Virus record (IMG/VR): IMGVR_UViG_3300041407_000075
Coordinates: 26,163-90,162 of that record
Direction: 5' to 3' (one strand)
DNA length: 64,000 nt
Source: a virus
In this document: positions 8,773 to 59,519 of the stretch, one piece after another
How the letters are laid out: the number at the start of each line of letters is the position of its first letter
Position numbering within the stretch: the stretch's first letter is position 1
Program-made: the position numbers and the translations under genes
Notes under the pieces: model-generated
What the model was told of the DNA's origin: nothing
Databases searched by the model: none
Seen by the model: only the letters and a program-made list of their open reading frames with translations

Positions 8773-9267
8773 TCAGCCTACAGAATCAATTAAAGCCTTT
8801 GCTTCTTGGACAAAATATCTGTAGTCCAAATCCCAAGAAAAGTCCTTGATGTCGTTACATGGTTTCACATCCCAACTGGTGTCAATACCCATGCGTCTCC
8901 ATTCACCACCTTCAGCCAATGGTGGCATCACCTTGATAAGTTTACCACCTTCTTTCGAAGGATAGTAGCGGCAAATGTTTTGTAGCTCAATTTCTTCGCC
9001 ATCCCCCATAACCATCAAAAGCTTACTACTTCTTGGTACTTTTGTCCTTAAACAAAAGTCATATTTGTCACGGTGTAGTCGAATAAAGTCTTCGTAGTCA
9101 CCCATCTCCAAAAGATGATAGAGTGCAGCCATTGACACAACCATGGATGACTGATTTTTTTGCCAACCGATTTTATCAAATGGCATTACTTCATATGCAC
9201 CTTTTGTTTTTACTTTACCGGATGAAATCAAATCCCGGATGATTTTTACTTCGTCTTCGTGGTCCAC
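8773..9267 (-). CDS. family B DNA polymerase, C-terminal (thumb) fragment
   Basis: GKVKTKGAYE (KxKG motif), W.KN.S; own GGAG RBS and GTG start inside the end of the HNH gene. Confidence 0.8.
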   Translation of the reverse strand: MDHEDEVKIIRDLISSGKVKTKGAYEVMPFDKIGWQKNQSSMVVSMAALYHLLEMGDYEDFIRLHRDKYDFCLRTKVPRSSKLLMVMGDGEEIELQNICRYYPSKEGGKLIKVMPPLAEGGEWRRMGIDTSWDVKPCNDIKDFSWDLDYRYFVQEAKALIDSVG

Positions 9268-9770
9268 GAATCTCTTTCTCCATGGTCGTCGTCAAAATTA
9301 TACTTTTCGTTAGCACTTTTCCTAGCTGCGGCTGCCAATTCTACAGTATCAAAAGTACCAAGTCCAATCAATTTACCATTAATTTTGATTCGTGCTCTGT
9401 ACCTACCACTACTCGACAAGTATACACCGTTGTACCCGGTTGTGTTATTTTCATTCTTCCCTCTATTTCTCATATTCTCTAGTGGTGTGGACAACCTAAG
9501 ATTTTCAATTCTATTGTCTTGTTTATCACCATTAATGTGGTCAATACTTGGATTAGGGTACTCACCATGTGTAATATACCAAGCTAGTTTATGAGCTGAA
9601 TACTTCTCCTCACCTACTGAAATTTCTAGGTAACCCCTTGAACTAGCATTACCTATTGTTTCACCCAATCTCCACATATGTGCAGGATGATCATTGAGAA
9701 TCTTAGTTCTTGTGAATTCACCTGTCAATGGGTCATAACTTACATAATTAATAAATTCTTCTAATTTCAC
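9246..9770 (-). mobile_element. HNH-AP2 homing endonuclease inserted in the DNA polymerase gene
   Basis: YDPLTGEF, AHKLAW, IDHINGDKQDNRIENLR, NTTGYNGV, LGTF. Confidence 0.92.
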
Positions 9771-19957: not shown

Positions 19958-19971
19958 AGAAATAACCACCC

Positions 19972-19996
19972 AGGCCGCTTGACGGCCTTTTCTTTT
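19972..19996 (+). terminator. intrinsic terminator
   Basis: AGGCCG-CTTGA-CGGCCT then TTTCTTTT. Confidence 0.85.
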
Positions 19997-20046
19997 GTCT
20001 GTATGATTCTCACATAAGCCGTTCACACAGAAGATGCAATCGGAGA

Positions 20047-20277
20047 TTGTTCCTCATGAACCTACTGAATGTATTAGATAAGCTTCCCTGCAATATCAAG
20101 AAAGCTGAGCTTGAGCCATTTGCTATGTGTATGGATGATGAGTATAAGCGGTTGGGGATTTTTGATCAGACGGTTGCTTACCAACACTACCTTCGTGCCA
20201 AATTTGTAAGTTGGGCTTGCAGAGAGAAGCCTATTAAGGTATGCTGGGGATCTAGAAATAAACCAGAATGGGTGTAA
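20047..20277 (+). pseudogene. probable C-terminal remnant of a pyrimidine-dimer DNA glycosylase-family gene
   Basis: PFAMCMDDEYK..., VAYQHY...K, W..RNKPEW resemble the family C-terminus; N-terminal half absent. Confidence 0.5.
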
Positions 20278-20400
20278 TATGAATATCATCTATGCTAAAC
20301 AAAAAGCTTTAGAATCTCTTATTCAGCGTGTTGCGGACGGCACAGCTTCAGAGTACGACCTCAAGAATTATAGTAAACTTAAAAAGTTAGGAGTTGTCAA

Positions 20401-20576
20401 ATGATAAACAAAGCTGATTGTTGGACTGTAGGCGATGGGTACGGAACCTACGTGGAACCTACGTGGACAATGAAAATGGGTGGTGGTATGAACGAGATGA
20501 TTATAATCAATTGTTTGAAGCTTACGAACTTCAAATGAAGGGTTGTTTGACATCACTTTTGAGAAAGAAGGCTTGA
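20401..20576 (+). pseudogene. small ORF frameshifted by an 11-bp tandem duplication
   Basis: GGAACCTACGT x2 at 20443-20464; removing one copy gives a 54-aa ORF. Confidence 0.45.
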
Positions 20577-20831
20577 CACGTAAAGTCACCCAAGTGATGA
20601 CAGAAAAAGTGGAGTATGTCTGATGACAACCTTAGAGGAATCCTTGCGAGAAAACAAAGAGTGGTGTAAAGAATTCCAGTCACAAACAAATGTGATGCAG
20701 GTTGTGGGAAAGAGGCTACAACATGGTTTGGTAATACTTCTTGTGCAACATGCGGTGATAGACGTTGTGTAGGAATTATGCAGGCTGATTACGATAAACA
20801 TCGTTATGAATCTGAAGATGAGGGTTATTAA

Positions 20832-21110
20832 ATGATCGTACATAAAAACATCACGCTCGTTAAGTGCAGCTCTGGTGATTGGGAGGGTTTGTATCTTGAC
20901 AATGAATTGTATCGTGAAGCTCACAGCATTCCTACACACGACATCTTCTACTTGATCAACAATCACCACATCCAAGAGGCTAAATCCTTTGAAGTGAATG
21001 AAGATTATACAGAGAATGTGGTAGAGTTGGTAGAGTTGGTTGAGTTGGTTGAGTATCATGGAGGTTATCCGCACTATCTTAGTGAAATTCCTGAAGAGGT
21101 TAGAGTGTGA
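20832..21110 (+). CDS. hypothetical protein with in-frame VEL repeat
   Basis: GDWEGLYLD motif; 9-bp tandem repeat at 21021-21053. Confidence 0.65.
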   Translation: MIVHKNITLVKCSSGDWEGLYLDNELYREAHSIPTHDIFYLINNHHIQEAKSFEVNEDYTENVVELVELVELVEYHGGYPHYLSEIPEEVRV

Positions 21111-21564
21111 CAAACCTAGTAAAATGTCACGGCACGGATTGTGACAGACGCCTATCCTGCACAAGATTCACCCAGGAATCTCTGCCGAAGTACCAAGCGT
21201 ATTTGGTAATGTGTGTGGCATGCAAGAATCCTAATGACGGGTGTAAATGGTTTGTTGATAATGAGGAGAAAACAAATGCTTGATGAAGAGAAAGTATTCA
21301 AACGTTTGTGTCGCGATATGCACATTGGAAATGACCATTCAAAGGTTGAAGATGCTAGGATCATTTGGGAAGCTGCAATCGCTTGGAAGGTTCAATACGA
21401 TGAATCTGTAACGGCAGCTAGAGAAGAAGCTTTGAGCAGGTATGAATAAAACAGCTTGATAGATTCTTTTCAATCCACCATAATCAACACACAAGACATG
21501 GCGTTAAGAGCGCTGAGATGAATGAAATAGATAAGTTATGTAGGATAAATAGGAGAGAAGGGTT

Positions 21565-21771
21565 ATGCCAAAACTAAAATGTATAGAGGTGTTTGAAATG
21601 GGAACAGGTGAGCCTGCATACTTCACAAAAGATAAAACTTATCTGCTTTACAGTTTAGATAACATAGTGTTCTTTTGTGTTGATGATCAGGAACAACTTC
21701 ACATTCTACCTTGGCCAGAAGTTGACGAAGATGGGTTTAATACTAAAGACTATTTTGAGGTGGTGAAATGA
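21565..21771 (+). CDS. hypothetical protein
   Basis: AGGAGA RBS. Confidence 0.6.
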   Translation: MPKLKCIEVFEMGTGEPAYFTKDKTYLLYSLDNIVFFCVDDQEQLHILPWPEVDEDGFNTKDYFEVVK

Positions 21772-21980
21772 AAACTCCACGTAAAGCTGTAGTAAGTAAA
21801 CGTGTATCTGAAGATGAGAAACTTAATAGCGCCCGTTGGACCTTCTTCCTCTCTCAGTGTAAGATTGATTGGGAATCTTTGAGCGAAGAATCTCGTGATT
21901 TCTTCGCAAGTATGGGCTCAACAGGATCCAGTGAAGAAGATATTAATAATGCAATCGACCTTGCCAGAGGTTTTAAATGA
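21768..21980 (+). CDS. hypothetical protein
   Basis: GAGG RBS; ATGA overlap. Confidence 0.6.
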   Translation: MKTPRKAVVSKRVSEDEKLNSARWTFFLSQCKIDWESLSEESRDFFASMGSTGSSEEDINNAIDLARGFK

Positions 21981-22177
21981 ATATTGATTTCGGTTGGATG
22001 GGTAAGGTTGTTCTGCAAGATTGGGAAGATCCTTTTACTCCTGAAGGTGAAGGATTTGCAATAGTGTCTGATGGTTACACAGAATCTGGTATTCGTGTTC
22101 ACGGTGTACTGGATCAACGTGAGTATGCTACTTACCCAAGTGTTTGGCGTAATGCCATTATGATTAAGGTGAATTGA
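21977..22177 (+). CDS. hypothetical protein
   Basis: ATGA overlap. Confidence 0.6.
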   Translation: MNIDFGWMGKVVLQDWEDPFTPEGEGFAIVSDGYTESGIRVHGVLDQREYATYPSVWRNAIMIKVN

Positions 22178-22879
22178 GATGATTTTTAAAACAAAGAAAG
22201 AGTGGTCATCTTTAGGCTTCTTCATTAAATCATTCGCACATCCTATTGGAAACATGTACGGATATAAAGATGTTCATGTAAAACTTTGTGGTCCAACTAG
22301 AAGAACTTATGAATTTTGGGAGAGTGTGGAATGAACACCTCACACGAACTAGCTCTTATGAACGCAATCGGTGTCCTCCCATTCAAACGCACTGGCTCTT
22401 CCCAATGGACTGTGTGTTTTAAGGATGCAACTGGTCAAGTTAAAACTGGTAACAACATTGCTAAGACATTTGGAAATGTTAGTGATGCGATGGTTTATGC
22501 AAAGGGATTGGTGAAATGAGCGCTCATCTTACATTTAAAGAGATTCCTAGAGTAAACGACTGTAAGTCTTGTCACGGTACGGGTGTTATGCGCTGGTATG
22601 ATCTAGATGGAGGTCCATATTATTCTTGGATGAAGCCTAAAGAATCACTCTGTAAAGAGTGCAGAGGACAAACCTTATGAACCACCTTAAGGAACTCCTA
22701 GAACAGCTCCAGTGTGCAGAAAGTGCCTATACAACCTCGAAAAGTTCCCTAGATAATAGTCTTGAATACATACTTTGCCGTGAAGAACTTAAGCAATGTC
22801 GTTTTAGGTTTGATAAGGCATGTCGTGAGTATGTTTTGGCTAATGTGTTTGGACAAGTTATTGAAGAGGAGATTGAGGC

Positions 22880-23077
22880 GTGAATATCAAATACATTTCT
22901 AGGAAGTTTCTATTATCTGCTGTTGTGCAGATGCTCTTGTTTGTGTTTCTCTACATCGGTAAGCTTCCGGTTGAGAATTTCCAGATTCTTACTATGACAA
23001 TCCTAACTTGCTACTTGGCGAGTAATGTTATCCAGAAAAGTGTTACGAAGGAGGCTAGTGATGAATCCAAAGTATAG
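22880..23077 (+). CDS. small two-TM membrane protein (holin-like)
   Basis: SRKF followed by two hydrophobic helices. Confidence 0.55.
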   Translation: MNIKYISRKFLLSAVVQMLLFVFLYIGKLPVENFQILTMTILTCYLASNVIQKSVTKEASDESKV

Positions 23078-23372
23078 CGAAGGCGAGATTGTCATTCTAC
23101 AAAGTGTTAATCATCCAGAGTACAGCGGAGAATATGAAGTATTCAAAATCCTATTCTACGGAGATAAATTTCCAGACCGACTGGATGAAACTACTATGTT
23201 AGTTTGTGATGGGCCAATTGGTTATATGTTCACAGAAGCTCTTGCAGATAAACCAAGCACAACAGAATGTATTTGGGCAGAGCATTCTTTGTGTAAACGA
23301 CAAGAGCCCGGTGAGATGGACTATAAAAAGTTGATGCAGACATTGAAGAATAGTGTTTTGGAGTGGAATTGA
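23061..23372 (+). CDS. hypothetical protein
   Basis: GGAGG RBS before the ATG at 23061. Confidence 0.65.
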   Translation: MNPKYSEGEIVILQSVNHPEYSGEYEVFKILFYGDKFPDRLDETTMLVCDGPIGYMFTEALADKPSTTECIWAEHSLCKRQEPGEMDYKKLMQTLKNSVLEWN

Positions 23373-23765
23373 TGAATTGGTACAATGAACTGTGTGGAAA
23401 TGGTTGTAAAGAAACTACTTTACCAGATGAAGTGAAGCCTTCGTGGGCAACACATTCATTCAGGCGAATGGGACAAACTTTGTACGGGCAACTCGTCACA
23501 GACAATTGGTTCTGGATGAATGAGGAACACAGCTTGTATTATACGTCTGAAGATATTGATACAGGATCGGTTGTTAAGCTATAAATAAGGTTGAATATTC
23601 CTAGCCTACTCCTTGTATCAACTAAGCCCTAACGTGGCTTAAACATACGAAAAAGCCGCATGAAAGGGTTGTTTTGCGGGGAGTTTGTGTAAATTAAAGG
23701 TTGCATGACATTCTCAGGAATGGTACAGTGATGGCATATAAACACTACAGATGGGGAAATAGAAT

Positions 23766-24005
23766 ATGAAACGGTCAAAACGTGTACAAGAGATTGAAGT
23801 GACAGCAACCGTCCATTTGGATACCTTGTATCTCCAAGAAGATCAGGCTTTTGCACTGATTGAAGCTGTTGACTTGCAGCAAGCTGAGTCTGGATTTACC
23901 ACAGAGGTTATCCTGCGGTTGATTAAATCTATGAAAGCTGAGTTTAAAGATGCTCCTGATGAGCTTGAAGATTTCATCACAACAGTCGGGGACGCTCTTA
24001 AATGA
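23766..24005 (+). CDS. hypothetical protein
   Basis: Follows a promoter-like TTGCAT-17-TACAGT at 23701-23729. Confidence 0.6.
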   Translation: MKRSKRVQEIEVTATVHLDTLYLQEDQAFALIEAVDLQQAESGFTTEVILRLIKSMKAEFKDAPDELEDFITTVGDALK

Positions 24006-24256
24006 ATTCCCTAGTTCTCCTAAAAGAACGCTTGCAAACTGTCTTAAATGGATCGACAGAGTCAGAAAGCTTTAAAGATGCAATCAGCGAAGGCTTGTAT
24101 GCATGTGATTTGAGTGTCATTGGTTTGGAACAGTGGATTGCACATTGGATTGAGTGGAAATCTGAGGATGTGGTTAATCGAAATGATGATCACGATTATT
24201 TAGAAGGTGTCAAGTTTGTAGAAGAACAATGGCATAAAATAACTGGGATGTTTTAA
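24002..24256 (+). CDS. hypothetical protein
   Basis: ATGA overlap. Confidence 0.6.
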   Translation: MNSLVLLKERLQTVLNGSTESESFKDAISEGLYACDLSVIGLEQWIAHWIEWKSEDVVNRNDDHDYLEGVKFVEEQWHKITGMF

Positions 24257-24574
24257 AGAGATGGTGTTTTGATAATTTAAATTAATGTTTTAGGAGAGAA
24301 AGATGATTGGAGACAAAGCTGTACTCGTGAGACTTACAGAAAAACAGCTTTGGTTGATCCTCAATCAATTGGAAGCATCCTCTGAGCCTGCACACCGTAC
24401 AAAAGAGGAAGATGAGACGCTACAAATTCTTAATGCTGCATGGAAACGGGCTCGAAAATAAATGTGATAATTTCGTGAAACACCCCTTGCTATCGGATCC
24501 AAAGGCTGTAAACTCACCTTTACAGAGTCTCTCACCAACTTTACACAGGCTCTGAATTTGTAACACAACACACA

Positions 24575-24841
24575 TTGGAGCTTAAAATGATCGTAGAAAT
24601 CAAAGCTGTATTGGAATCTCTGAAAGTAGAAGGTGTACACAATGAAGCACTGATGGATTGTCTAGCTTATTCAAACCTGCCTGTCAGCACATTGGAAGGG
24701 TTCCTAGACAGCCACCTGTGGTTTGCTGAGGATGCTGATTTCGATACAGCTTATCCTACAGATGAGGCTAAATCTTATGTTATCAGCCTTGGAAGTATTG
24801 AGCAAGTGCTTGTAAATCAAGGGCTTATCTATAACGATTGA
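24575..24841 (+). CDS. hypothetical protein
   Basis: ORF on the early strand; GGAG RBS before an internal ATG. Confidence 0.6.
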   Translation: MELKMIVEIKAVLESLKVEGVHNEALMDCLAYSNLPVSTLEGFLDSHLWFAEDADFDTAYPTDEAKSYVISLGSIEQVLVNQGLIYND

Positions 24842-24880
24842 TAGGTTTGAAATAATTTGATTTATTTTGACTCAGAGAGC

Positions 24881-24909
24881 TTGACACCATGATCAGGCTC
24901 GCTTACTAT
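24881..24909 (+). promoter_or_regulatory. sigma70 early promoter
   Basis: TTGACA-17-TACTAT. Confidence 0.8.
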
Positions 24910-25019
24910 TAAGTCACAGAAGGGAGATGTTGAAGAAGGCAAACAAGCAGTAGCCATCTTGAAGAGCATGGAGACAAGCACACAGGAACAATCCTTTGTG
25001 TTCTTTCTAAATTCTTAGG

Positions 25020-25235
25020 GTGATTATCATGGCAGTCACACAGATCAAAAGCACTTTCAGCACAATCAATCCAGGCAAAGTCCGCCGTGTGTTTAACGAT
25101 AGTGGGTTGTTCCTTGGGACGATTACTAAACTTGACAACAATCAAGGCTACTCAGTGTTCCGTCTCAAAGATGGAAAGCGCAGAATCAAACGGTATTTGG
25201 CCGATGCATTCAAGACTATCCGGCGCGAAAATTGA
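25020..25235 (+). CDS. hypothetical protein
   Basis: First ORF after the promoter. Confidence 0.6.
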   Translation: MIIMAVTQIKSTFSTINPGKVRRVFNDSGLFLGTITKLDNNQGYSVFRLKDGKRRIKRYLADAFKTIRREN

Positions 25236-25245
25236 GGGTGAGACT

Positions 25246-25656
25246 ATGATTAATGTCAAAGGCTACTTAGTGGAAAGAGATAATCGTTCACTATTCATCC
25301 GGGATATTAACGAGGCTTCATGGGCGTTGGAGGATAGTGAATACACAGTAACACCGTTGGTTGCAATGAAGTCAGCAGATGTATATGAACAGTTTATAGT
25401 GGCAGATCCGAAGGAAGAATCCCCCAGCCTTCCAAGTACAGATGATACAGCGGAGCGTATTGAGTTAATGAATGAGCTGTTTGATTTGCAACAGGCTGAA
25501 ATTGACTTCCTCAAGAATAGGTTAGAGGAGTTTGTTGAGGTGGTGGAAGGGATCGTTGAGCTAACAGAAGTGATTAGTCAAAGTAGCATAGAGAATCGGA
25601 GCAAACTCATCGTTATAGGTGATAGCTGCAAAGCTGTCCTAAATCCTAGTGAATAG
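25246..25656 (+). CDS. hypothetical protein (MINVKGY...)
   Basis: GAGG RBS before an internal ATG of the 189-aa track ORF. Confidence 0.6.
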   Translation: MINVKGYLVERDNRSLFIRDINEASWALEDSEYTVTPLVAMKSADVYEQFIVADPKEESPSLPSTDDTAERIELMNELFDLQQAEIDFLKNRLEEFVEVVEGIVELTEVISQSSIENRSKLIVIGDSCKAVLNPSE

Positions 25657-25672
25657 CTGAAAGTACTACCTC

Positions 25673-25701
25673 AATCCCTCCTAACCCGAGGGATTTTTCT
25701 T
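25673..25701 (+). terminator. intrinsic terminator
   Basis: AATCCCTC-loop-GAGGGATT then TTTCTT. Confidence 0.75.
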
Positions 25702-25731
25702 GTCTATCTGAAAATAAATTGAAAATTCTTG

Positions 25732-25760
25732 TTGACATGATTGTGCTGTGGGCCTAGTAT
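25732..25760 (+). promoter_or_regulatory. sigma70 early promoter with AT-rich UP element
   Basis: TTGACA-17-TAGTAT. Confidence 0.8.
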
Positions 25761-26096
25761 GCAGGTATAGAAACCAAACACAGCAAAAGGTGATCGAGAT
25801 GAACATCCAACAAAAGCAACTCACCCCAGAATTTTCAGAAGGCTGGACTACTCGTGTTGAGCATAAAATGTTGTCGGTTTGCCCTTATGCTAAAGATACT
25901 TTAGAAGCCAGGCTCTGGTGCTATGGCTGGTATGAAGCTTCTCGTGATCCAGCTTTAATTTCTGAAGAGATGGGAGAGAGGGAATGAACATTACTGACTT
26001 TATATGTGAAGTGATTTTCTGGATGATCGTGACTACGCTGACATCTGTGCTGGTTGCCTCAGTGCTCACAGGAGTTAAATAAAATGAAAATAGGTA

Positions 26097-26125
26097 TTGA
26101 CAGGACTTTCTGACTACCTTAGAAT
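26097..26125 (+). promoter_or_regulatory. sigma70 early promoter
   Basis: TTGACA-17-TAGAAT. Confidence 0.85.
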
Positions 26126-26339
26126 ATCTACATAGGAAGCAGAAAGCTTCTAAACGAACAGGAGCGACAACCATGAACATGTCCCAACTCAAAGCCCGTG
26201 TAGAAGCAGCCCTCAAAGCTGGCATCCTTTCTAACGAACAAGCTGTAGCCGCCTATGCAGCTTTGTCTTCCAAGACTCACTACGGTGCTTCGGCAAGCAA
26301 TGCCACTCGTGATCGTATGTTGACTAATCGGTTTGGGGT

Positions 26340-26552
26340 GTGACCATCAAAAAGCTTATAGGCCAACTCATACCCGGTGACAAGGTATTCGTTCGAGTAG
26401 GTGGCAGCAAATTCAAATCAGCTTGCGAAGTTAGGGAGATGACCTTTAACAACATAGGCGAGGAGAATGAAACAGCCACTATACTTTTTGATGATGGGAC
26501 TGAGCAGTGGCTACAGAATTGGTATACAACTGAATTGATTGAGGTGATATAG
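26340..26552 (+). CDS. hypothetical protein
   Basis: Coupled ORF. Confidence 0.55.
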   Translation: MTIKKLIGQLIPGDKVFVRVGGSKFKSACEVREMTFNNIGEENETATILFDDGTEQWLQNWYTTELIEVI

Positions 26553-26953
26553 TGAGTAATTTTAAAGGTTCGGTAAGTATAAGTCGTAACAGTAACGATC
26601 AAGTGAACATCCGAATTCACGATAGTGCATCTGGTGCTGAATTTGTAGACATACAGATTACACTTGAAAACTACGCGCTGCTAATTACTGGCCTTAGTCG
26701 TGTAGAGGCTACAGGTGATGTTCGTGGTCTTGATAAGGTAGGCAAGCAAAAAGTAATTGAACAACGTTCTGTAGTTTGCCCACTAGACGGCTGGGATAAG
26801 AAGGTCTTTAGACACTGGCTTATCGAAAACTGTCAGGAAGAAGGTTGGGAGTTGAACAGCTACCTTGACAGTCAAACGAGTGTCAGTAATAATAAAGATG
26901 GGACCAAGACTCTGAACTATTCAGTCGTTAGATATGTGGAGGATGCATCATGA
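26552..26953 (+). CDS. hypothetical protein
   Basis: GAGGTG RBS. Confidence 0.7.
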   Translation: MSNFKGSVSISRNSNDQVNIRIHDSASGAEFVDIQITLENYALLITGLSRVEATGDVRGLDKVGKQKVIEQRSVVCPLDGWDKKVFRHWLIENCQEEGWELNSYLDSQTSVSNNKDGTKTLNYSVVRYVEDAS

Positions 26954-27150
26954 GTACCGTAATGTGTATGTGTAAGACTTGCGGAGTGAAACCCGGTATT
27001 CGTACTGGCCTAGGTGGGCTAGGACACTTCTTTAACTGCATTCTGTGTATCTTGACAGGAATTCTGTGGTTGCCAGTGTATCTGCTGATATGGGCAGTAT
27101 CCTATAAAACACAGTGTATGAATTGTGGTCGTCTCGCTAAGAAGATGTAA
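26950..27150 (+). CDS. zinc-ribbon membrane protein (LITAF-like layout)
   Basis: CKTCG - hydrophobic segment - CMNCG. Confidence 0.65.
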   Translation: MSTVMCMCKTCGVKPGIRTGLGGLGHFFNCILCILTGILWLPVYLLIWAVSYKTQCMNCGRLAKKM

Positions 27151-27171
27151 AAACATAGAAATAAACACTAC

Positions 27172-27194
27172 GCCCCGCTTGACGGGGCTTCTTC
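27172..27194 (+). terminator. intrinsic terminator
   Basis: GCCCCG-CTTGA-CGGGGC then TTCTT; same loop as the terminator at 19972. Confidence 0.75.
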
Positions 27195-27234
27195 ATGCCT
27201 ATAGAATTACCCTAACGAAACGAACAAAGCTTAG

Positions 27235-27957
27235 GTGAACATCATGTGGAAAGGTCAAGGTAGGTCAGGTTACGGTGAATCCTCAACAGGTGGTGATTAC
27301 GACGATTGGTCTTGCCTTTCCCGTAATGGTCGCCAGTGGAAGAACCCAGCCACCATGCTCACTCGTGACCTTTCCGGTGCTGACTACTGGCATATCCGTA
27401 AACAAATGACAGACAGCTATGATGTTCCATTAGAAGTGTATGCTGAGAACGACACTGTGAACTTGGCTCATACACTGCCGAACGGAAAAGCTAACTTATT
27501 GGCTTATGCTGATAAGGCACCAGTTGTCAAGCCTAAAGTCAGTATCAAAGATAAGATCTTACCACAAGCCAAACGCTTGACAATTCTTCGTGAACAGATG
27601 GTGGAACTGGAAAAATCCTATCGTAATGATGAGATGTCAATCTCTGAGTATAGTCTTCTTCGTGATGTGATTGTGGCTAAGATCGAACGTCAGGAAGTGT
27701 TGCTGAAGAAGGCTGTAAGTGTCCGTCCAATTCGTACAGAAACAGAGGAAGTTGGCGTAGAAACTGCCTATGAAACGTGTGATGTAGACTACAGCCACAC
27801 AGAGGTAGCCACTAGCTGTGGAGTGAGCTGGATCGATGAATTATCCCCAAGCAATTCCTTTAAAAAGATTTTGCAAATCACTTGCACGGTAGCCGTAAAG
27901 CTTGTACACTTTAGTCAAAGGGCAAAAGCCTACTACCAAACGTTGAAAGAGGTGTGA
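27235..27957 (+). CDS. hypothetical protein (240 aa)
   Basis: Long ORF on the early strand. Confidence 0.75.
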   Translation: MNIMWKGQGRSGYGESSTGGDYDDWSCLSRNGRQWKNPATMLTRDLSGADYWHIRKQMTDSYDVPLEVYAENDTVNLAHTLPNGKANLLAYADKAPVVKPKVSIKDKILPQAKRLTILREQMVELEKSYRNDEMSISEYSLLRDVIVAKIERQEVLLKKAVSVRPIRTETEEVGVETAYETCDVDYSHTEVATSCGVSWIDELSPSNSFKKILQITCTVAVKLVHFSQRAKAYYQTLKEV

Positions 27958-27958
27958 C

Positions 27959-28168
27959 ATGGATATCTTCGAACAGTACGAAAGAGAGTTGTCGGAAAAG
28001 GCACGCAAGGAGATTGCTGAAGAAGACGCCAAGTGGACTGCTTTGACCCAGGAGGAGAAAGACAAGATCAACAAAGCCCGTGAAGACAAGTACGCAAATG
28101 TACCTGACGAAGAGCCTGACCTTGATAGTGATGACTACGAAGAAGACGATGAGGAGGAAGATGAATGA
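27959..28168 (+). CDS. highly acidic small protein
   Basis: C-terminus DEEPDLDSDDYEEDDEEEDE; GAGGTG RBS. Confidence 0.7.
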   Translation: MDIFEQYERELSEKARKEIAEEDAKWTALTQEEKDKINKAREDKYANVPDEEPDLDSDDYEEDDEEEDE

Positions 28169-29416: not shown

Positions 29417-30097
29417 ATGAAACAACTTAAATTTATTCACGGTGTTGGTATCAACGATGCAGACTACCCTGTAACACAAAACAAAGTCGTTGATGGAAAA
29501 CAAGTTCAGATTTGGATTTGTCCGTTTTATGCAAGGTGGCGGGCTATGTTCAAAAGGGCTTATTCCGAAGCTTACCAGTCTCTGTACACCACATATGTGG
29601 GTTGTTCGGTTTGTCCTGAATGGATTTACTTTACTAATTTCAAAAGCTGGATGGAGACACAAGATTGGGAAGGTAAACAACTTGATAAAGATTTGTTGGT
29701 TAAAAGCAACAAGATTTATAGTCCTGAGACTTGCGTGTTTATTGAGCAGAAGATCAACAAATTCATGTCAGAAAAACCTAATAAGGTTCGAGAACTGCCT
29801 ACAGGTGTTTCTTGGGATAAAAAGGCCAGCGCATATAGGGCTCAGTGTATCTCAGTCGAAACGGGCAAACAGACCAATCTAGGATGGTTTGATTCCCCCG
29901 ATACGGCACACAAAGCATGGCTGGCTTTCAAGCTAGAGCAAGCACATGCACTGGCATTCACCCAATCAGATAAGCGTATCGCAAAAGCTTTGATTGAACG
30001 ATACGAAAATTATTCAAAAATAGATGAGATAATTGTTGACCATAGCCCTGAATTAACCTATTATTCACTTACTAAAGAGAATCAACAGAAGGAATAA
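29417..30097 (+). mobile_element. HNH homing endonuclease
   Basis: GVGINDADY, W..M.KR, YVGCSVCPEW..F.NF, QLDKDLL...NKIYSPETC, LPTGV. Confidence 0.88.
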
Positions 30098-30762: not shown

Positions 30763-30944
30763 GGAATACAGCCATGATCATCTCCCTGATAGCTTTCTAC
30801 AAAATCTTCCTTCAAGACAGCCAACCAACTAAAAATAAGCCTATATACCACAAGACGTGGAAAGACGAAGTGGAAGGCTATCCAGCGTCTAGCTATGCTA
30901 AGAGCTTGGAGATGGTTGTTCATTAATTTATTGCAGCCCATTCT

Positions 30945-30998
30945 TACCCTGGTTGCCTGGATAAGAAGATGAACCAGGATGCCTAGGCAACCAGGGTA
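30945..30998. repeat. perfect 14-bp inverted repeat containing CCWGG sites
   Basis: TACCCTGGTTGCCT (30945-58) / AGGCAACCAGGGTA (30985-98). Confidence 0.9.
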
Positions 30999-31043
30999 CA
31001 CCTACCAGGGTGAAAATATCTTTATTTTCTTTTGAAAATTCTC

Positions 31044-31071
31044 TTGACCTGTCCCACCAGGGTGCTACACT
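31044..31071 (+). promoter_or_regulatory. sigma70 early promoter
   Basis: TTGACC-16-TACACT with extended -10 TG and AT-rich UP element. Confidence 0.7.
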
Positions 31072-31126
31072 ACAGACATGAAAGGGAAGAAGTGGAATCC
31101 TCCACACCCTCTCCAGGAGATTCAAA

Positions 31127-31675
31127 ATGTCGAATGTAGCCGTTTCTTTCGCCTCCCTGGTTAAATCCAACAACGGTATGTTCAAGTCTGAAGCTCAGGC
31201 TAAATTCCTTCTGTCTCAATGCCAGGAAGAAAACACCTTTGTTTGCGGCGGCAACGTCTACAACAACTCTTTCACAATTTTCTACATCTGTGACTCCCTG
31301 GGTGTTGTTAAGGTTGAAAAATACCTTCCTAAATCCGGTAAAACTACCACTACCTGGGAACGTCTGACTGCTGATCAATTCCAAGCAAGCCAGGAAGCTA
31401 AAGCGACCTCTAAAGCTCGTGACATCGCTTTGCAAGAAGCCTCGGTTGCTAAGTGGCAAGTCCGCCAGGACGCATTCAACAATGCGCTGGCAGTGGCAAA
31501 GTCTTACATTAAACAAGTTATGATTGAAACTGGTTGCCCTGAAGCAACTGCTCAACGTGCTGTTGATAGCATCATGAACAACCAGGACGACATTAACAAC
31601 AGCATGGAAACCCTGGTTAAATCTTCTGAGTTTGTTAAAGCCTGGGAGGTATACAACAACGAACCAGGAGTGTAA
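31127..31675 (+). CDS. hypothetical early protein (182 aa) with high-expression codon style
   Basis: AGGAGA RBS; own promoter and terminator; rich in AAC/TTC/CTG/TCC codons. Confidence 0.85.
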   Translation: MSNVAVSFASLVKSNNGMFKSEAQAKFLLSQCQEENTFVCGGNVYNNSFTIFYICDSLGVVKVEKYLPKSGKTTTTWERLTADQFQASQEAKATSKARDIALQEASVAKWQVRQDAFNNALAVAKSYIKQVMIETGCPEATAQRAVDSIMNNQDDINNSMETLVKSSEFVKAWEVYNNEPGV

Positions 31676-31696
31676 AAGCTTCCTGAAGAGTCCTAG

Positions 31697-31715
31697 AAGC
31701 CCCGTGAGGGGCTTT
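31697..31715 (+). terminator. intrinsic terminator
   Basis: AAGCCCC-GTGA-GGGGCTT-T. Confidence 0.7.
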
Positions 31716-31804
31716 AATTGTTTATAGGGTATGAGAATGTCTATTCCAGGTAAATTAACCTTCCAGGGGCTACCAGGGACAGTGAACAATTTAAAAGAAA
31801 TACC

Positions 31805-31833
31805 TTTACCTGGTAATTTTCAAAGTCTATAAT
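31805..31833 (+). promoter_or_regulatory. sigma70 early promoter
   Basis: TTTACC-17-TATAAT. Confidence 0.65.
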
Positions 31834-32105
31834 CTATAAACAAACCAGGAGCAGACACCATGAATTATGAAGAAAAGCCCATCATCATCCCTTTCCTTAA
31901 AGTGATCAATGGTATTCAATTAGTGATGTGGGACTACTCAGAGCGTGCTGAGATCTATGAGCAGTTTATTATGATGAGCGAGGACTATGCTGAGTACACG
32001 CCAGTCCGATTCGAAGCTTTGTGAGAATGGATGGATACAGGCAAAGCCTGAATATCCTGTTAGGTTTGAGAAGCTTTAATTAATTACGCTCGGAGTATAA
32101 TAGAG

Positions 32106-32294: not shown

Positions 32295-32336
32295 GATATG
32301 CACTAATGCATAAATAATCAATCTAGCAGGGAATTA

Positions 32337-32361
32337 TAAGCCACTCAAATGAGTGGCTTAA
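32337..32361. terminator. palindromic hairpin, possible terminator
   Basis: TAAGCCACTC-AAAT-GAGTGGCTTA. Confidence 0.6.
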
Positions 32362-32993
32362 TGTTATCAAGAGTATTAATACAACACCTTCCAAGTATCC
32401 TTTCTGTTGATACTAACAAATCCCCTCAAAGCCTTGTCCAATCTAGTCTTAATGACTACACAAACTACACTCATTAGTCTACTTTCTAGGCATGTACAGT
32501 ATTATCTAAGTAGTCTCATATGTTAAGCCTGATACCATTTCCCTCCAACTTTCCTCCTGCACCAATTCCTTTCCACCCATCCTAACCACCATCTCTTAGC
32601 AATTTATTGCGTATCCTTTCACACAATCCTCATAATACATTGACATAAGCTAGTGAAGTGTGCTAGTTGTGCAACATAGATTATTATGGTTGACATATGT
32701 GGTCTGTTCAGGGTGACTAGGTGTTTAGAGTAGTTGCTCCATTGAACATAACGTTAAAATCTATGCACACCAAGCAAGCTATCTTGTTACATCCACCTGT
32801 CAGAGTTTATGTCAAGGGTAATATCTTCAGAGGTATTGACCAGATGATTGGGCAGGTAGTTGGCATGATCTTTGTTGCAATATTTTGTTATTTAAGAATG
32901 ATTCGTATTGGGTGAGTCCTTAAGGCGTTAAGCTAATCTGATACCGCGCCAGTGTTTTCAAGGCTTTCAGACCTATTCCATATTTTCTTACAG

Positions 32994-33018
32994 ACAAAAG
33001 AAACCCTCCGAAGAGGGC
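32994..33018 (-). terminator. intrinsic terminator ending the minus-strand block
   Basis: Minus strand CCCTC-TTCG-GAGGG-TTTCTTTTG (cUUCGg loop). Confidence 0.8.
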
Positions 33019-33039
33019 TGTAGTTAATTTTACAGGGGA

Positions 33040-34038
33040 TTAGATATTTCTCACACCACCATGTTCTTCAAAGATATGAATCACAGGTTCTAAATTTGAG
33101 GGGAAGGTAGTCTCAGTATACCCATCAGGCATTTCCTCTTTAGTGATTACCTTTGTAGTTAGGTTATTCAGACAATACCTTTCAGCATCTCTACAGTCTT
33201 TAACTGTTGGATAAGTCCAGACACCATAATTTATAACATCATAAATTGATAGCTGGTTCTGACGTTTAATCCTTTCAGTTGATAGATTTGCAATACCAAA
33301 CTTAATAGCAACTACATCTTCTTTATCCATTAGAAGATTAATATAGGTTTCTTGTTGTCTATTACCACTACAAGCACAAGACCTAACACCCTTATACAAA
33401 CCCACTAAATGTCCTTCACCTAATTCACCACAGTCAGGACAATCCATGTACCAGTATTTCTTATGTCCGTGTTTATCAACTCTTTCACTTCTGGTAAATA
33501 CTGTACCATCAGCATAACATCCAGTGTCCATAAACATTTTAATCATTACAGAGTCATCTTTTCTTTTGTAGTCTCCCATCCTCAAAGCAAAGCATCCCGC
33601 ACAACCTTTGTATCCACCTTTGATAAGAAAGAAACTGATTGTCATAGAAAAGAAATCTCCGTGGTCTGGACACTCCGCTACCACTTTAGTTTTGTTGGCT
33701 GTAGTGAAATCACCATGCCAACCTTTAAAGATTAAACCTCTTTCCACACAAGCTCTATTAACCCTTACTACATACTGCTCTTTAGACCAATTGCACTTAT
33801 CTGTACATCCGCATGGAATACAACCTCTGTTTAGATGGCCTTTACTCATTGCAAACAACCCCTCACCAAATAGTTCAGGGTCTTCTTTGCATACAGAGCA
33901 CTCTACAATATACTTCTTATCGTTAGCATACTTACCATTCCAGCCTACAACCGTTAAGTTTCCAAATACTGTTCCTTCAAACCCATCATATTTCATTACC
34001 CCATCTTCAATCAAGTCTTTCAAACTAGCCATACGCAC
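33040..34038 (-). mobile_element. putative homing endonuclease (Cys-rich repeats plus C-terminal GIY-YIG-like domain)
   Basis: FGNLTV, several CxxC, CPDHG; C-terminal YINL...KFGI...R...E. Confidence 0.7.
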
Positions 34039-46627: not shown

Positions 46628-47263
46628 TTACTCCTTATTAAAACCATAGTATTTAAGTTCAGCTTCAGAACGTATAAAACATGCTAGTTCAAAATCATCA
46701 TACCTGCCTAATCGAATAGTTTTACCATTTTGATTAATTCGAACTTCCCACTTACCTTTCTCCTTATTCCAGTTTACGCCCGTACGACCAGAAGTGTTTG
46801 TCTTCTTCATCTTTTGATCATAAGCCTGTAAACTCAGGTCAGCCCATTCACAAGTTTCTTTGGAGTAAATTTTAGCTCCATTTATGCGATTGATTGTTTT
46901 ACCTTCTGGCCGCGCACCCATATCTCCAAAGAAGTTTTCAAAAGATCCACCCTTTGTAGTATCCCATCTGTCGCAAATCTCAACATCTCCGTGCCACTCT
47001 GCGTATTCTTCACTTCTTGTCCTTGAACACAACTTTGCCCAAGAAGTGTAGGTTGAAGTTTTATACATTCCGTGACTAATTGGTTTTCTAGGTTGACACC
47101 CACAATGTGTAGTTCTGTTGTGAAGAAGTCTTGGTGAAAGCAATTCTAAATGATTACCGCAATCACACACGCAGTTCCAACTAATGCTTTTACTCTTATG
47201 TTTGGCATCCGACTGACCTACCACCAATAGCAGGCCAAATCTCTGATTAGTTAAATCTCTCAA
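46628..47263 (-). mobile_element. HNH-AP2 homing endonuclease
   Basis: DLTNQRFG, CVCDCG, TINRING...YSKETCEW, NTSGRTGV, LGRY. Confidence 0.88.
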
Positions 47264-52504: not shown

Positions 52505-53272
52505 ATGAGAATGACCAAACTAGAGAAAAAGAATATGAAACGTGGGGATATCTACAACACAAAAAATGGCGATTTGGAAATTCGAGTGGTCATCAGTGCT
52601 AATGAGGTTGTGGTCAGGTTTGTAGATACAGACTATTTTACAATTACCACTAAATCTAATATTTGCAGCGGTAAGATTAAAGATCTGATGAAACCAAGTG
52701 TTTTTGGTATTGGTTTTATGGGTGCAGGTAAATATAATATAAATAATGCACCGACAGCCTACCAAAAGTGGACATCCATGCTTCAGAGGTGCTATCGGGA
52801 GAATTCCATTAGCTGGGAACGGTATGGAGGTAATGGGGTTACTGTTGCGGAAGAGTGGCATAACTTCCAAAACTTTGCAGAGTGGTACGAGAGTTACAAA
52901 TATAAGGAGGATGGGTGGCACCTAGATAAAGACATCCTCATAAAAGGTAATAAACTGTATTGCAAAGAATCCTGCTGTATTGTACCTAGAATTATAAACC
53001 AATCTCTCGTCTCTAGAGTTGGACTGAGGGGTGAGTATGCAATTGGAGTTACGTGGGATGAAAAAGCTAGCAGATACTCTGTAATGCTAAATGCTCACCA
53101 TACACACTACAAAGCATTTCGACAGATGTACAGGAGCGAGCGTGAAGCATTTATGGAGTACAAAGCCGCAAAAGAAAGTTATCTTGTTGCATTAGCATAT
53201 GAATGGAGGGGGCGTGTAGCCCCTAAAGTATTGAAAGCCTTAGTAGAGTATGAAGTTGAATGGAACGATTAA
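52505..53272 (+). mobile_element. HNH homing endonuclease
   Basis: GKIKD...PSVFGIG, W..MLQRCY, WHNFQNFAEW, HLDKDIL.KGNKLY. Confidence 0.88.
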
Positions 53273-58601: not shown

Positions 58602-59519
58602 TTGAATTACACTAAAATCTATAATGCTCTTGTTGAAAAAGCTAAACTTCGCGGCCTCGATAAAAGCCAGCATGAGGGTTACTTTGAAATTCATCATATT
58701 CTCCCTAAGTGTTTGGGAGGGGCTGATGATGATTCAAATTTAGTAATGTTTACTGGTCGTGAACACTTTATTGCACACATGTTAATGTGGAAAGCTAATC
58801 CCAACGATGTGAGTCTTCAACGTGCTGCTTGGATGATGAGTGCTCGTAATGTCTGCAAAGTAAATTCTAGACTTTATTCAGCCATCCAAGAAGTAAAGAG
58901 AAAAGAAGCTTCTGAACAGATGAAAGGTCGATACTTTAAAGACCTTACAGGTAATCGTTACGAACGACTTGTTGTAGTTAGTCAAGGTGATCATTATTAT
59001 ACTCCGAGTGTACTTCGGTACACTCGCTGGAATTGCGTATGTGATTGTGGGAATGAAAAGCTTATTAATGCAGGTTCTTTAACCAGTGGAAACACCCGTA
59101 GTTGTGGTTGCTTAGCTTATGAAGTTAGGAAATCCTATGCGGGTAAAACATATGATGAAGAAACGAAAAAGAAGTTTAGATACCTCACAGGTGAAGATCA
59201 CCCGTCATACGGCACAAAGTACAGTGAAGAACGAAGAGCTAAAGCCGCCGCTGCTCGCAGGGCTTTAGACCTGAAAGCTTGGGAAATCTCTTCTAAGGTA
59301 AGTTCAACCGGTCATGATCGTTGGTTAATTGCAGACTACTACCATGAACTCTGGCTATATTTTGAAAAGCCCGGAATTAAGAAATTTGCAAAGTGTTTTA
59401 ATGAAACACATAACGACGAAACAAAACACACAAGTTATACCACTCTAATCAATATGTTTAATACAGGTTGGATTCCTTTAGAAGATGAGGAATGGATTAA
59501 ATTTTCTAAAGGTAATTAA
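58602..59519 (+). mobile_element. HNH homing endonuclease with NUMOD-like repeats, directly upstream of terL
   Basis: NY..IY..L, EIHHILPKCLGG, NLV..T.REHFIAH, DLTGNRY, CVCDCG, GEDHPSYG. Confidence 0.88.

Follow-up and report, generated by a model that had tools for sequence, protein, structure and literature searches.

Why should a phage that carries hardly any CCWGG sites (W stands for A or T) along most of its genome concentrate 22 of them in less than one kilobase? The question is raised by a locus at 30927-31865 of a 64,000-nucleotide stretch of viral DNA, called the window here, which comprises bases 26163-90162 of the single-contig, 90,162-bp phage record IMGVR_UViG_3300041407_000075 of IMG/VR. 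The locus surrounds a gene for a 182-amino-acid (aa) protein similar to NrdC.8 of T4-type phages, and an earlier note, made from the sequence without database searches, had singled it out as a CCWGG-saturated island in a genome that otherwise avoids the word. The phage under study (G000) was compared with five related phage genomes from other samples (G001-G005); these are complete or near-complete, and whole records were used. The word is purged from nearly all of the genome, and the island recurs in relatives with its sites conserved independently of the encoded amino acids; tentatively, it is read here as an accessory cis-acting array that host enzymes would recognise.

Depletion and local saturation of CCWGG

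The window contains 30 CCWGG sites, and the whole record contains 31. Twenty-two of them lie in the island (30948, 30956, 30974, 30991, 31005, 31057, 31113, 31156, 31222, 31297, 31353, 31390, 31465, 31582, 31612, 31641, 31664, 31746, 31763, 31773, 31809 and 31845), and only 8 are found in the rest of the window (19970, 21172, 25071, 25908, 28048, 36788, 48985 and 55603). All of the island coordinates listed in the earlier note are exact; the outside sites, which it had collected by eye and regarded as probably incomplete, are exact as well and make up the complete list for the window outside the island. Its claim that the genome avoids the word also stood up to comparison with Markov expectations: outside the island, G000 has 9 sites, as compared with 92, 114, 117 and 79 expected under models of order 0, 1, 2 and 3, respectively (ratio 0.08-0.11). 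Among all words of four to six letters, CCWGG is the most depleted one outside the island (z -7.9), followed by CTGCAG (0 copies versus 21 expected) and GATC. The avoidance is visible in codon choice, as had been noticed for Pro-Gly pairs; in open reading frames (ORFs) of at least 100 aa outside the island, proline is encoded by CCA or CCT in 587 of 714 cases (82%) when no glycine follows, whereas 34 of 36 Pro-Gly pairs use CCC or CCG, which leaves no site.

The island presents the reverse picture. The cassette delimited below (30927-31865, 939 bp, guanine-cytosine (GC) content 0.442) contains 22 sites, where its own base composition would predict 1.24 (Poisson 3e-20), with seven of them in 200 bp of 5' non-coding DNA, ten in the 549-bp gene and five in 184 bp of 3' non-coding DNA. 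The density is 23 per kb in the island and 0.1 per kb in the rest of G000. By far, CCWGG is the most clustered word of four to six letters in this genome (Poisson 4e-32; 2e-11 for the runner-up word), and it is the top clustered word in G001 (2e-27) and G002 (1e-13), too.

Five of the nine stray sites of G000 fall at 19970-28048, in an 11-kb series of small plus-strand genes that directly precedes the island. Homologues in the relatives are lacking for most of these genes, and the stray sites among them may mark recently acquired cassettes.

Recurrence in relatives and conservation of the sites

Six genomes with a common, broad restriction-avoidance profile, but otherwise very mosaic, provide the comparison; the palindromes CTGCAG, GGATCC, GTCGAC, GAGCTC, GGTACC, CTCGAG and CCCGGG have 0-2 copies versus 4-30 expected in all of them. 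The numbers of CCWGG sites, given against Markov expectations of order 1 and order 3, are 31 versus 116 and 87 in G000, 23 versus 105 and 79 in G001, 21 versus 112 and 78 in G002, 133 versus 147 and 137 in G003, 1 versus 112 and 106 in G004 and 0 versus 82 and 64 in G005. In G001, 18 of the sites are packed into 850 bp around the homologue of the 182-aa gene, and 16 of those of G002 lie in 1.6 kb. G003, with an observed-to-expected ratio of 0.97, is the sole genome that does not avoid the word, and its densest kilobase is nevertheless located at this gene, with eight sites in the gene and four upstream. The pattern is found, therefore, in three of the five relatives (G001 and G002 purged and provided with an island, G003 not purged), so the expectation that relatives would keep the density despite sequence divergence proved right for these three; G004 and G005 have no CCWGG cluster anywhere. 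The avoiders that possess an island retain 5-9 stray sites, as compared with 0-1 CCWGG in the island-free genomes. A further CCWGG cluster, found in a distant relative (locus L023, 10 sites in 824 bp), lies in a GC-rich coding contig end of different composition and was set aside as compositional. The locus table of CCWGG counts did not cover L014 and L015, whose contigs are identical with those of L003 and L004, nor the nine short loci L020, L022, L025, L027-L029, L031, L032 and L035.

G003 is also the only genome of the six in which a cytosine C5-methylase (PF00145) was found, the profile giving no matches in G000, G001, G002, G004 and G005. The enzyme has 301 aa (L036:1474-2379, corresponding to G003:30469-31374), its core being Dnmt3/HhaI-like and its variable region short, and it is the genome composition alone that predicts a CCWGG-type target for it. 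Only CCWGG is relieved in G003; the same seven 6-bp palindromes are still avoided there. Its Pro-Gly pairs are encoded with CCT or CCA in 28 of 38 cases, and those of G004 with CCC or CCG in 28 of 28. Since avoidance is absent only in the methylase-bearing genome (a single genome), a methylation-sensitive, CCWGG-specific agent is the likely cause of the purge, judging by these sequences, with a host nuclease as the default candidate. Profile searches for Vsr (PF03852) found nothing in five genomes; the same result was obtained for EcoRII-C (PF09019), whose model matched no control genome either. A tblastn comparison (E 1e-5, crude ORF list) revealed no gene common to the genomes with an island and missing from those without one; the candidates considered were a single-stranded DNA-binding protein, a ClpP-like protease, PhoH and homing endonucleases.

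A codon alignment of the gene from G000-G003 places the sites at the same positions, while the proteins of the relatives are only 66-76% identical to that of G000; eight codon positions carry CCWGG in at least three of the four genomes. Sites are kept through changes of the encoded residues, as in tcC CTG Ggt (S-L-G) versus atC CAG Ggt (I-Q-G), or agC CAG Gaa (S-Q-E) and aaC CAG Gaa (N-Q-E) versus aaC CTG Gct (N-L-A); Thr-, Phe-, Ala- or Val-Leu-Val is written NNC CTG G every time in the island genomes. G004 and G005 encode the same residues with synonymous, site-free codons (tcg ctt gtc, tgt caa gaa, gct tgg). At fixed positions the central base swaps, CCAGG in one genome corresponding to CCTGG in another, and this free exchange of A and T suggests a symmetric reader of double-stranded DNA and not an RNA signal.

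The excess is not explained by the codons that the gene uses. Synonymous-codon shuffles of the 182-aa gene give 3.99 +/- 1.36 sites versus the 10 observed, and none of 3000 shuffles reaches 10. The positions at which the protein sequence permits a site are used in 10 of 15 cases in G000, 10 of 17 in G001, 8 of 19 in G002 and 8 of 14 in G003, but in 0 of 12 in G004 and 0 of 8 in G005; the baseline in ORFs of at least 100 aa of the unpurged G003 is 100 of 1147 (8.7%). Such genome-wide counts of possible positions were made on a crude list of ORFs of at least 100 aa, which for G000-G002 includes the ORF antisense to the island. Sites are also retained better than other 5-mers, with 16 of 22 versus 547 of 1217 between G000 and G001 (Fisher p 0.008) and 8 of 21 versus 125 of 1049 between G000 and G002 (Fisher p 0.002), and two further comparisons gave p values of 0.001 and 0.04. 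The sites persist between G000 and G002 at a DNA identity of 57%, and upstream DNA of G001 without homology to that of G000 contains sites as well.

A second gene shows the same property. G002 and G003 contain an unrelated ORF of 120 aa (109 aa in G003; L047:3580-3942, or G002:83580-83942, and G003:66265-66594) that belongs to no known family, was found only in these two genomes and is filled with CCWGG at 5 of 8 and 4 of 7 possible positions, respectively; a small ORF that separates it from the NrdC.8-like gene is devoid of sites. Since this unrelated gene is site-filled as well, the property belongs to the region and not to one protein. No motif longer than CCWGG was found around the 56 island sites, with A preceding the word in 27 of the 56.

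On these comparisons, double-stranded CCWGG is under positive selection in the cassette. The proposal that the signal acts at the DNA level is borne out by the conservation of sites across amino acid changes, by the A/T swaps and by the use of codon positions. An RNA-level signal was tried and rejected, since site-to-site pairs number only 1, 2 and 1 among the 11, 11 and 9 sites of the folded transcripts of G000, G001 and G002; the z-scores of these folds are -1.7, -3.3 and -0.8, respectively, and that of the site-free homologue of G004 is -3.9. Very-short-patch repair as the driving process was also rejected, by what is a weak test, as CTWGG and CCWAG are not depleted in the islands (4.4, 2.3 and 5.7 versus 3.7, 3.4 and 3.8 per kb elsewhere).

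Borders, anatomy and protein of the cassette

The exchanged segment and the CCWGG island have the same borders. Metagenome contigs of two other studies, matched at 80% likeness and with flanks 85-91% identical, contain other DNA at this place; in the contig of run X2, position 30926 is joined to 31866 with 436 other letters between them, and in that of run X3, 30926 is joined to 32322 with 834 other letters. The DNA similarity between G000 and G001 is restricted to 30989-32021 (84%) and to a separate 176-bp non-coding piece. The presence of other DNA between the same flanks in relatives speaks against a genome end, a pac site or an origin, and for an accessory role. The locus has the features of an exchangeable cassette, namely a promoter and a terminator of its own (both of them pattern matches) around a small gene, and replacement in relatives; it is described here as an exchangeable early-gene cassette (30927-31865, no strand assigned) on the grounds of the site counts and the joints in other contigs. 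A 92%-identical copy of the left part of the locus was seen in a third other run.

The left border coincides with the stop codon (30924-30926) of a plus-strand 50-aa ORF (30774-30926), which contains no CCWGG and has no PHROG match. It is followed by a perfect inverted repeat (30945-30960/30983-30998, plus strand, 22-nt loop) that contains the sites 30948, 30956, 30974 and 30991; the earlier note had rightly seen a site-bearing repeat here, but its arms are 16 bp and not 14 bp long. The predicted RNA fold of 30936-31040 has an energy of -37.5 kcal/mol (z -4.5), with none of 200 shuffles equally good, and the repeat at 30945-30998 may be the terminator of the 50-aa ORF. A sigma-70-type promoter-like site follows on the plus strand (31044-31071, TTGACC-16-nt-TGc TACACT, a consensus match only), with CCAGG at 31057 in its spacer; G001 has identical hexamers and keeps the spacer CCAGG, though the surrounding bases differ. 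The ribosome-binding site CCAGGAG (31113-31119, plus strand), in which a site overlaps AGGAG 7 nt before the ATG, is identical in G001. The 182-aa NrdC.8-like gene itself (31127-31675, plus strand) was recognised by a match to the profile phrog_2274, and its ten sites fall in the register NNC-CWG-GNN seven times, NCC-TGG twice and CCA-GGN once. Behind it, an intrinsic-terminator-like hairpin with a T-rich tail (31696-31715, plus strand, a consensus match only) and a sigma-70-type promoter-like site for the next gene (31805-31833, plus strand, TTTACC-17-TATAAT, a consensus match) are found; CCTGG at 31809 overlaps the -35 box, and the arrangement is the same in G001. The last site of the island lies in the ribosome-binding site CCAGGAG of that next gene (31845-31851, plus strand), which reads CCAAGAG in G001, with the site lost. 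The presence of sites in promoters and ribosome-binding sites, also claimed beforehand, holds for the spacer at 31057, for the -35 box at 31809 and for both AGGAG boxes, which read CCAGGAG. The downstream plus-strand ORF of 54 aa (31860-32024) contains no CCWGG, is shared with G001 (83% aa identity) and with the island-less contigs, and matched nothing in PHROG or Pfam.

The 182-aa protein matches phrog_2274 with E 3.3e-13 and is 31-33% identical to the products of T4-type nrdC.8 genes over 71% of its length. A large protein collection contains 26 homologues; PF26901 is the precomputed label on all 27 homologues, and a direct Pfam search gave no match at E 0.01. Twenty distant homologues have 0-2 CCWGG per gene, in DNA of ordinary CCWGG density, and the array is confined to the four closest family members. 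Structure models of the protein (predicted local distance difference test scores 89.7 and 90.7) suggest three parts, namely an N-terminal domain built from two helices plus four strands, a helix of 53 residues, and a helical domain that is small and acidic; the N-terminal domain contains an invariant NNGxFKSExQ motif, which is kept in G004 and G005. Fold searches with the whole protein and the N-terminal domain (Foldseek on PDB, VIA-align wide, ESM Atlas) revealed nothing informative, the best Z-scores being 5.8 and 4.2, and a BFVD structure search returned only uncharacterised NrdC.8-like proteins. Neither Ocr nor ArdA, the DNA-mimic anti-restriction folds looked for, is among the fold matches listed, where a uracil-glycosylase inhibitor appears at Z 3.9 only. 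The isoelectric point is 5.29, with 20 Asp and Glu versus 18 Lys and Arg residues. The one recent mention of nrdC.8 that was found is a transcript-level remark (PMC13275509).

On the strand opposite to the 182-aa gene, a 239-aa open frame (31070-31789, minus) has neither a start context of its own nor a homologue; probably it merely reflects the codon pattern of the plus-strand gene. The 64 kb include at least seven homing-endonuclease-like genes of the HNH and related types (1767-2477, 9246-9770, 29417-30097, 33040-34038, 46628-47263, 52505-53272 and 58602-59519). Two of them flank the island, 0.9 kb upstream and 1.2 kb downstream, and the island of G001 also adjoins one; given so many such genes per genome, this proximity may be due to chance. 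The non-coding 176-bp piece shared with G001 (32536-32711, in the ORF-poor gap 32300-33040) is 82% identical between the two genomes, the surrounding DNA being unrelated. It opens with a pyrimidine-rich tract and has two TTGACA-like boxes; in G002, a similar CT-rich tract follows the gene at a distance of about 400 bp. The 176-bp piece may serve as an origin or a regulatory region, or it may mark a genome end.

The window as a whole encodes a split family-B DNA polymerase, a primase-helicase, a terminase, a portal protein, a head protease and many HNH homing endonucleases; a search of the window for transfer RNA genes found none. The nearest cultured relative of the terminase is that of Pseudomonas phage phiPMW, with 42% identity. 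The island DNA had no match among phage records, and a rhizosphere metagenome is the only sequencing run found to contain this stretch. The esterase gene, searched for clues to the host, gave a single match with 25% identity.

Candidate readers of the array

The reading favoured here, to which a probability of about 40% is given, is that the cassette is an accessory cis-acting array which DNA-level selection maintains and which CCWGG-specific enzymes of the host recognise. Elsewhere in the genome the word has been purged, most likely because the hosts carry a CCWGG nuclease that is blocked by cytosine methylation; the array would engage on one small cassette a symmetric CCWGG-specific enzyme of the Dcm/EcoRII kind, supplied by the host or, in G003, by the phage's own methylase. 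Perhaps it acts as a sink or lure at the place where an abundant early protein is made; it might also titrate an autoregulated methylase such as M.EcoRII, or sense the methylation state of the host, and an incoming block of unmethylated sites could alter the host system. The more specific form of this idea, a positively selected lure by which the enzyme or an autoregulated methylase is trapped, titrated or reprogrammed before it can matter for the site-free remainder of the genome, perhaps with the help of the early protein, is doubtful, though worth keeping in view. As for the overall interpretation offered in the earlier note, the comparative data uphold a DNA-level signal and avoidance that would come from a CCWGG-specific, methylation-sensitive agent. 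Of the three functions that it put forward as candidates (a decoy at the first-injected or redundant end, a methylation passport and a binding array for the 182-aa protein), some evidence speaks against the first and the last.

Several points weigh against an array read by host enzymes. Both the reader and the host CCWGG enzyme are putative, and a dense island ought to be costly to the phage wherever unmethylated sites are cut by a host nuclease. The gene is kept in G004 and G005, whose genomes have 1 and 0 sites, respectively. The promoters of the gene copies in G002 and G003 have no CCWGG, which means that a promoter-level role is not general. The variable region of the G003 methylase is unlike that of E. 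coli Dcm, the alignment to Dcm, HhaI and Dnmt3 being confined to the catalytic core. The conservation tests compare 3-4 related sequences, in which phylogenetic inertia adds to the counts, and the description of the cassette as early and highly expressed derives solely from consensus matches to promoters, ribosome-binding sites and terminators.

A binding array for a phage protein that acts as operator-binding or structural factor is rather unlikely. The 182-aa product, or another phage protein, would bind CCWGG as an operator and shut the cassette off, or would nucleate a protein-DNA structure; the joint travel of gene and sites in one cassette agrees with this, as do the sites in the promoter spacer and in the -35 box of the next promoter in G000 and G001, together with those in both ribosome-binding sites of G000, and the modelled 53-residue helix could dimerise, a symmetric dimer being suited to a palindromic word. 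However, the protein, including its invariant N-terminal motif, is kept in G004 and G005, where whole genomes have 0-1 CCWGG, its 20 distant homologues have 0-2 sites each at ordinary density, the G002 and G003 promoter is free of sites while a second, unrelated gene is filled with them, and the protein is near-neutral (pI 5.3), with no recognisable DNA-binding fold and no informative fold match. It is improbable, too, that the element works through 5-methylcytosine, set by a host Dcm-type enzyme or by the G003 methylase, to mark parental versus new DNA or to set expression, as clusters of GATC do in oriC, P1 pac, mom and IS10. CCWGG is a methylase target, the methylase-bearing G003 keeps the island and sites overlap promoter elements in G000 and G001, but five of the six genomes encode no C5-methylase, and the positions conserved in all four island genomes are in the gene body and not in the promoter.

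Only a small chance is left for the island being a by-product without function, its sites having been gained elsewhere (in a methylase-protected phage, by codon bias or by biased gene conversion) and imported too recently to be cleaned away. The locus is a hot spot of cassette exchange, a methylase-bearing relative has the cassette, 7 of 10 coding sites are in the register that a gene biased to CTG/CAG and C-ending codons favours, and the stray sites are more numerous in the island-bearing avoiders (5-9 versus 0-1), all of which agrees with a by-product. What argues against it is the degree and persistence of the enrichment: the density exceeds that of the unconstrained G003 about 17-fold (23.4 versus 1.38 per kb), possible positions are used 5-8 times as often as in the G003 baseline, shuffles of the gene's own codons give 4 sites and not 10, 12 sites are non-coding, and the sites outlast amino acid changes, A/T swaps and a DNA identity of 57%; in addition, CTWGG and CCWAG are not depleted, and the cassette is present in three separate avoider genomes. 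Very improbable is a structural element, i.e., a first-injected or terminally redundant decoy end of the kind considered in the earlier note, a packaging start or a replication origin. The island lies in a block of small genes behind host-type promoters, 1 kb away from the 750-bp non-coding gap between two convergent gene blocks, and clusters of methylase sites mark the pac site of P1 and oriC. Against this, the same flanks hold other DNA in relatives, the terminase gene is 28 kb away, the distance to the contig ends differs in every assembly, the 77- and 127-bp end repeats look like assembler overlaps, and G004 and G005 are devoid of any CCWGG cluster.

The array has partial parallels in known systems. 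Virulent phages avoid restriction sites, and methylases of their own relieve this; the background here agrees with such avoidance (CCWGG in five of six genomes and seven palindromes in all), and the one genome with a C5-methylase does not avoid CCWGG. Avoidance accounts for the background alone, however; it predicts the reverse of a conserved, positively selected cluster of the very word that is avoided. Clusters of GATC are cis-regulatory elements at oriC, where they are bound by SeqA, at P1 pac, in Mu mom and in IS10; to our knowledge, such regulatory clusters have no CCWGG counterpart. The likeness to these Dam/GATC clusters is that a short methylase target word is locally far above chance. 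Unlike them, since they occupy origins, pac sites and promoters in genomes that are not purged, the array described here has most of its conserved sites in coding DNA and is dispensable in relatives. Small genes with a promoter, a hairpin and a terminator are also swapped between the same flanks in the exchangeable early-gene cassettes of T4-type and Felix O1-type phages, which are not known to carry a restriction-site array; the 182-aa protein belongs by profile to the T4 NrdC.8-like family, but only its four closest members have the array. Sites refractory to EcoRII were reportedly dealt with by Kruger et al. in 1988. In T5 and BF23, no sites are permitted in the terminal repeat that enters first, and they may be present in the remaining DNA (PMC10644984). 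The first-step-transfer DNA of T5/BF23 is similar to the present case in the regional contrast of site content within one phage, tied to early genes; the present case is a mirror image, with the early cassette saturated and the rest purged. A full-text literature search for site islands, decoys and NrdC.8, mostly at the title and abstract level, found no account of an island dense in restriction sites in a phage that otherwise avoids them.

Within one genome, selection acts strongly against CCWGG over about 89 kb and strongly in its favour over about 0.9 kb, and the pattern recurs in relatives, among which natural controls exist: one methylase-bearing relative without avoidance, and two relatives without sites or island. 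Sequence signatures of this kind are new, and this one implies that the phage itself makes use of sites for restriction or methylation. A simple genome-wide screen for words with few copies overall and local saturation could reveal similar elements directed at other defence systems. Phage answers to restriction are thought to consist of site loss, base modification and inhibitor proteins; should the array prove to be a lure or sensor, phage counter-defence would gain a class based on DNA, and, if the lure reading is true, the array would be the first phage anti-restriction element that acts via DNA sites and not via a protein or base modification. A lure or sensor would also give a function to the widespread NrdC.8-like early gene family or to its cassette.

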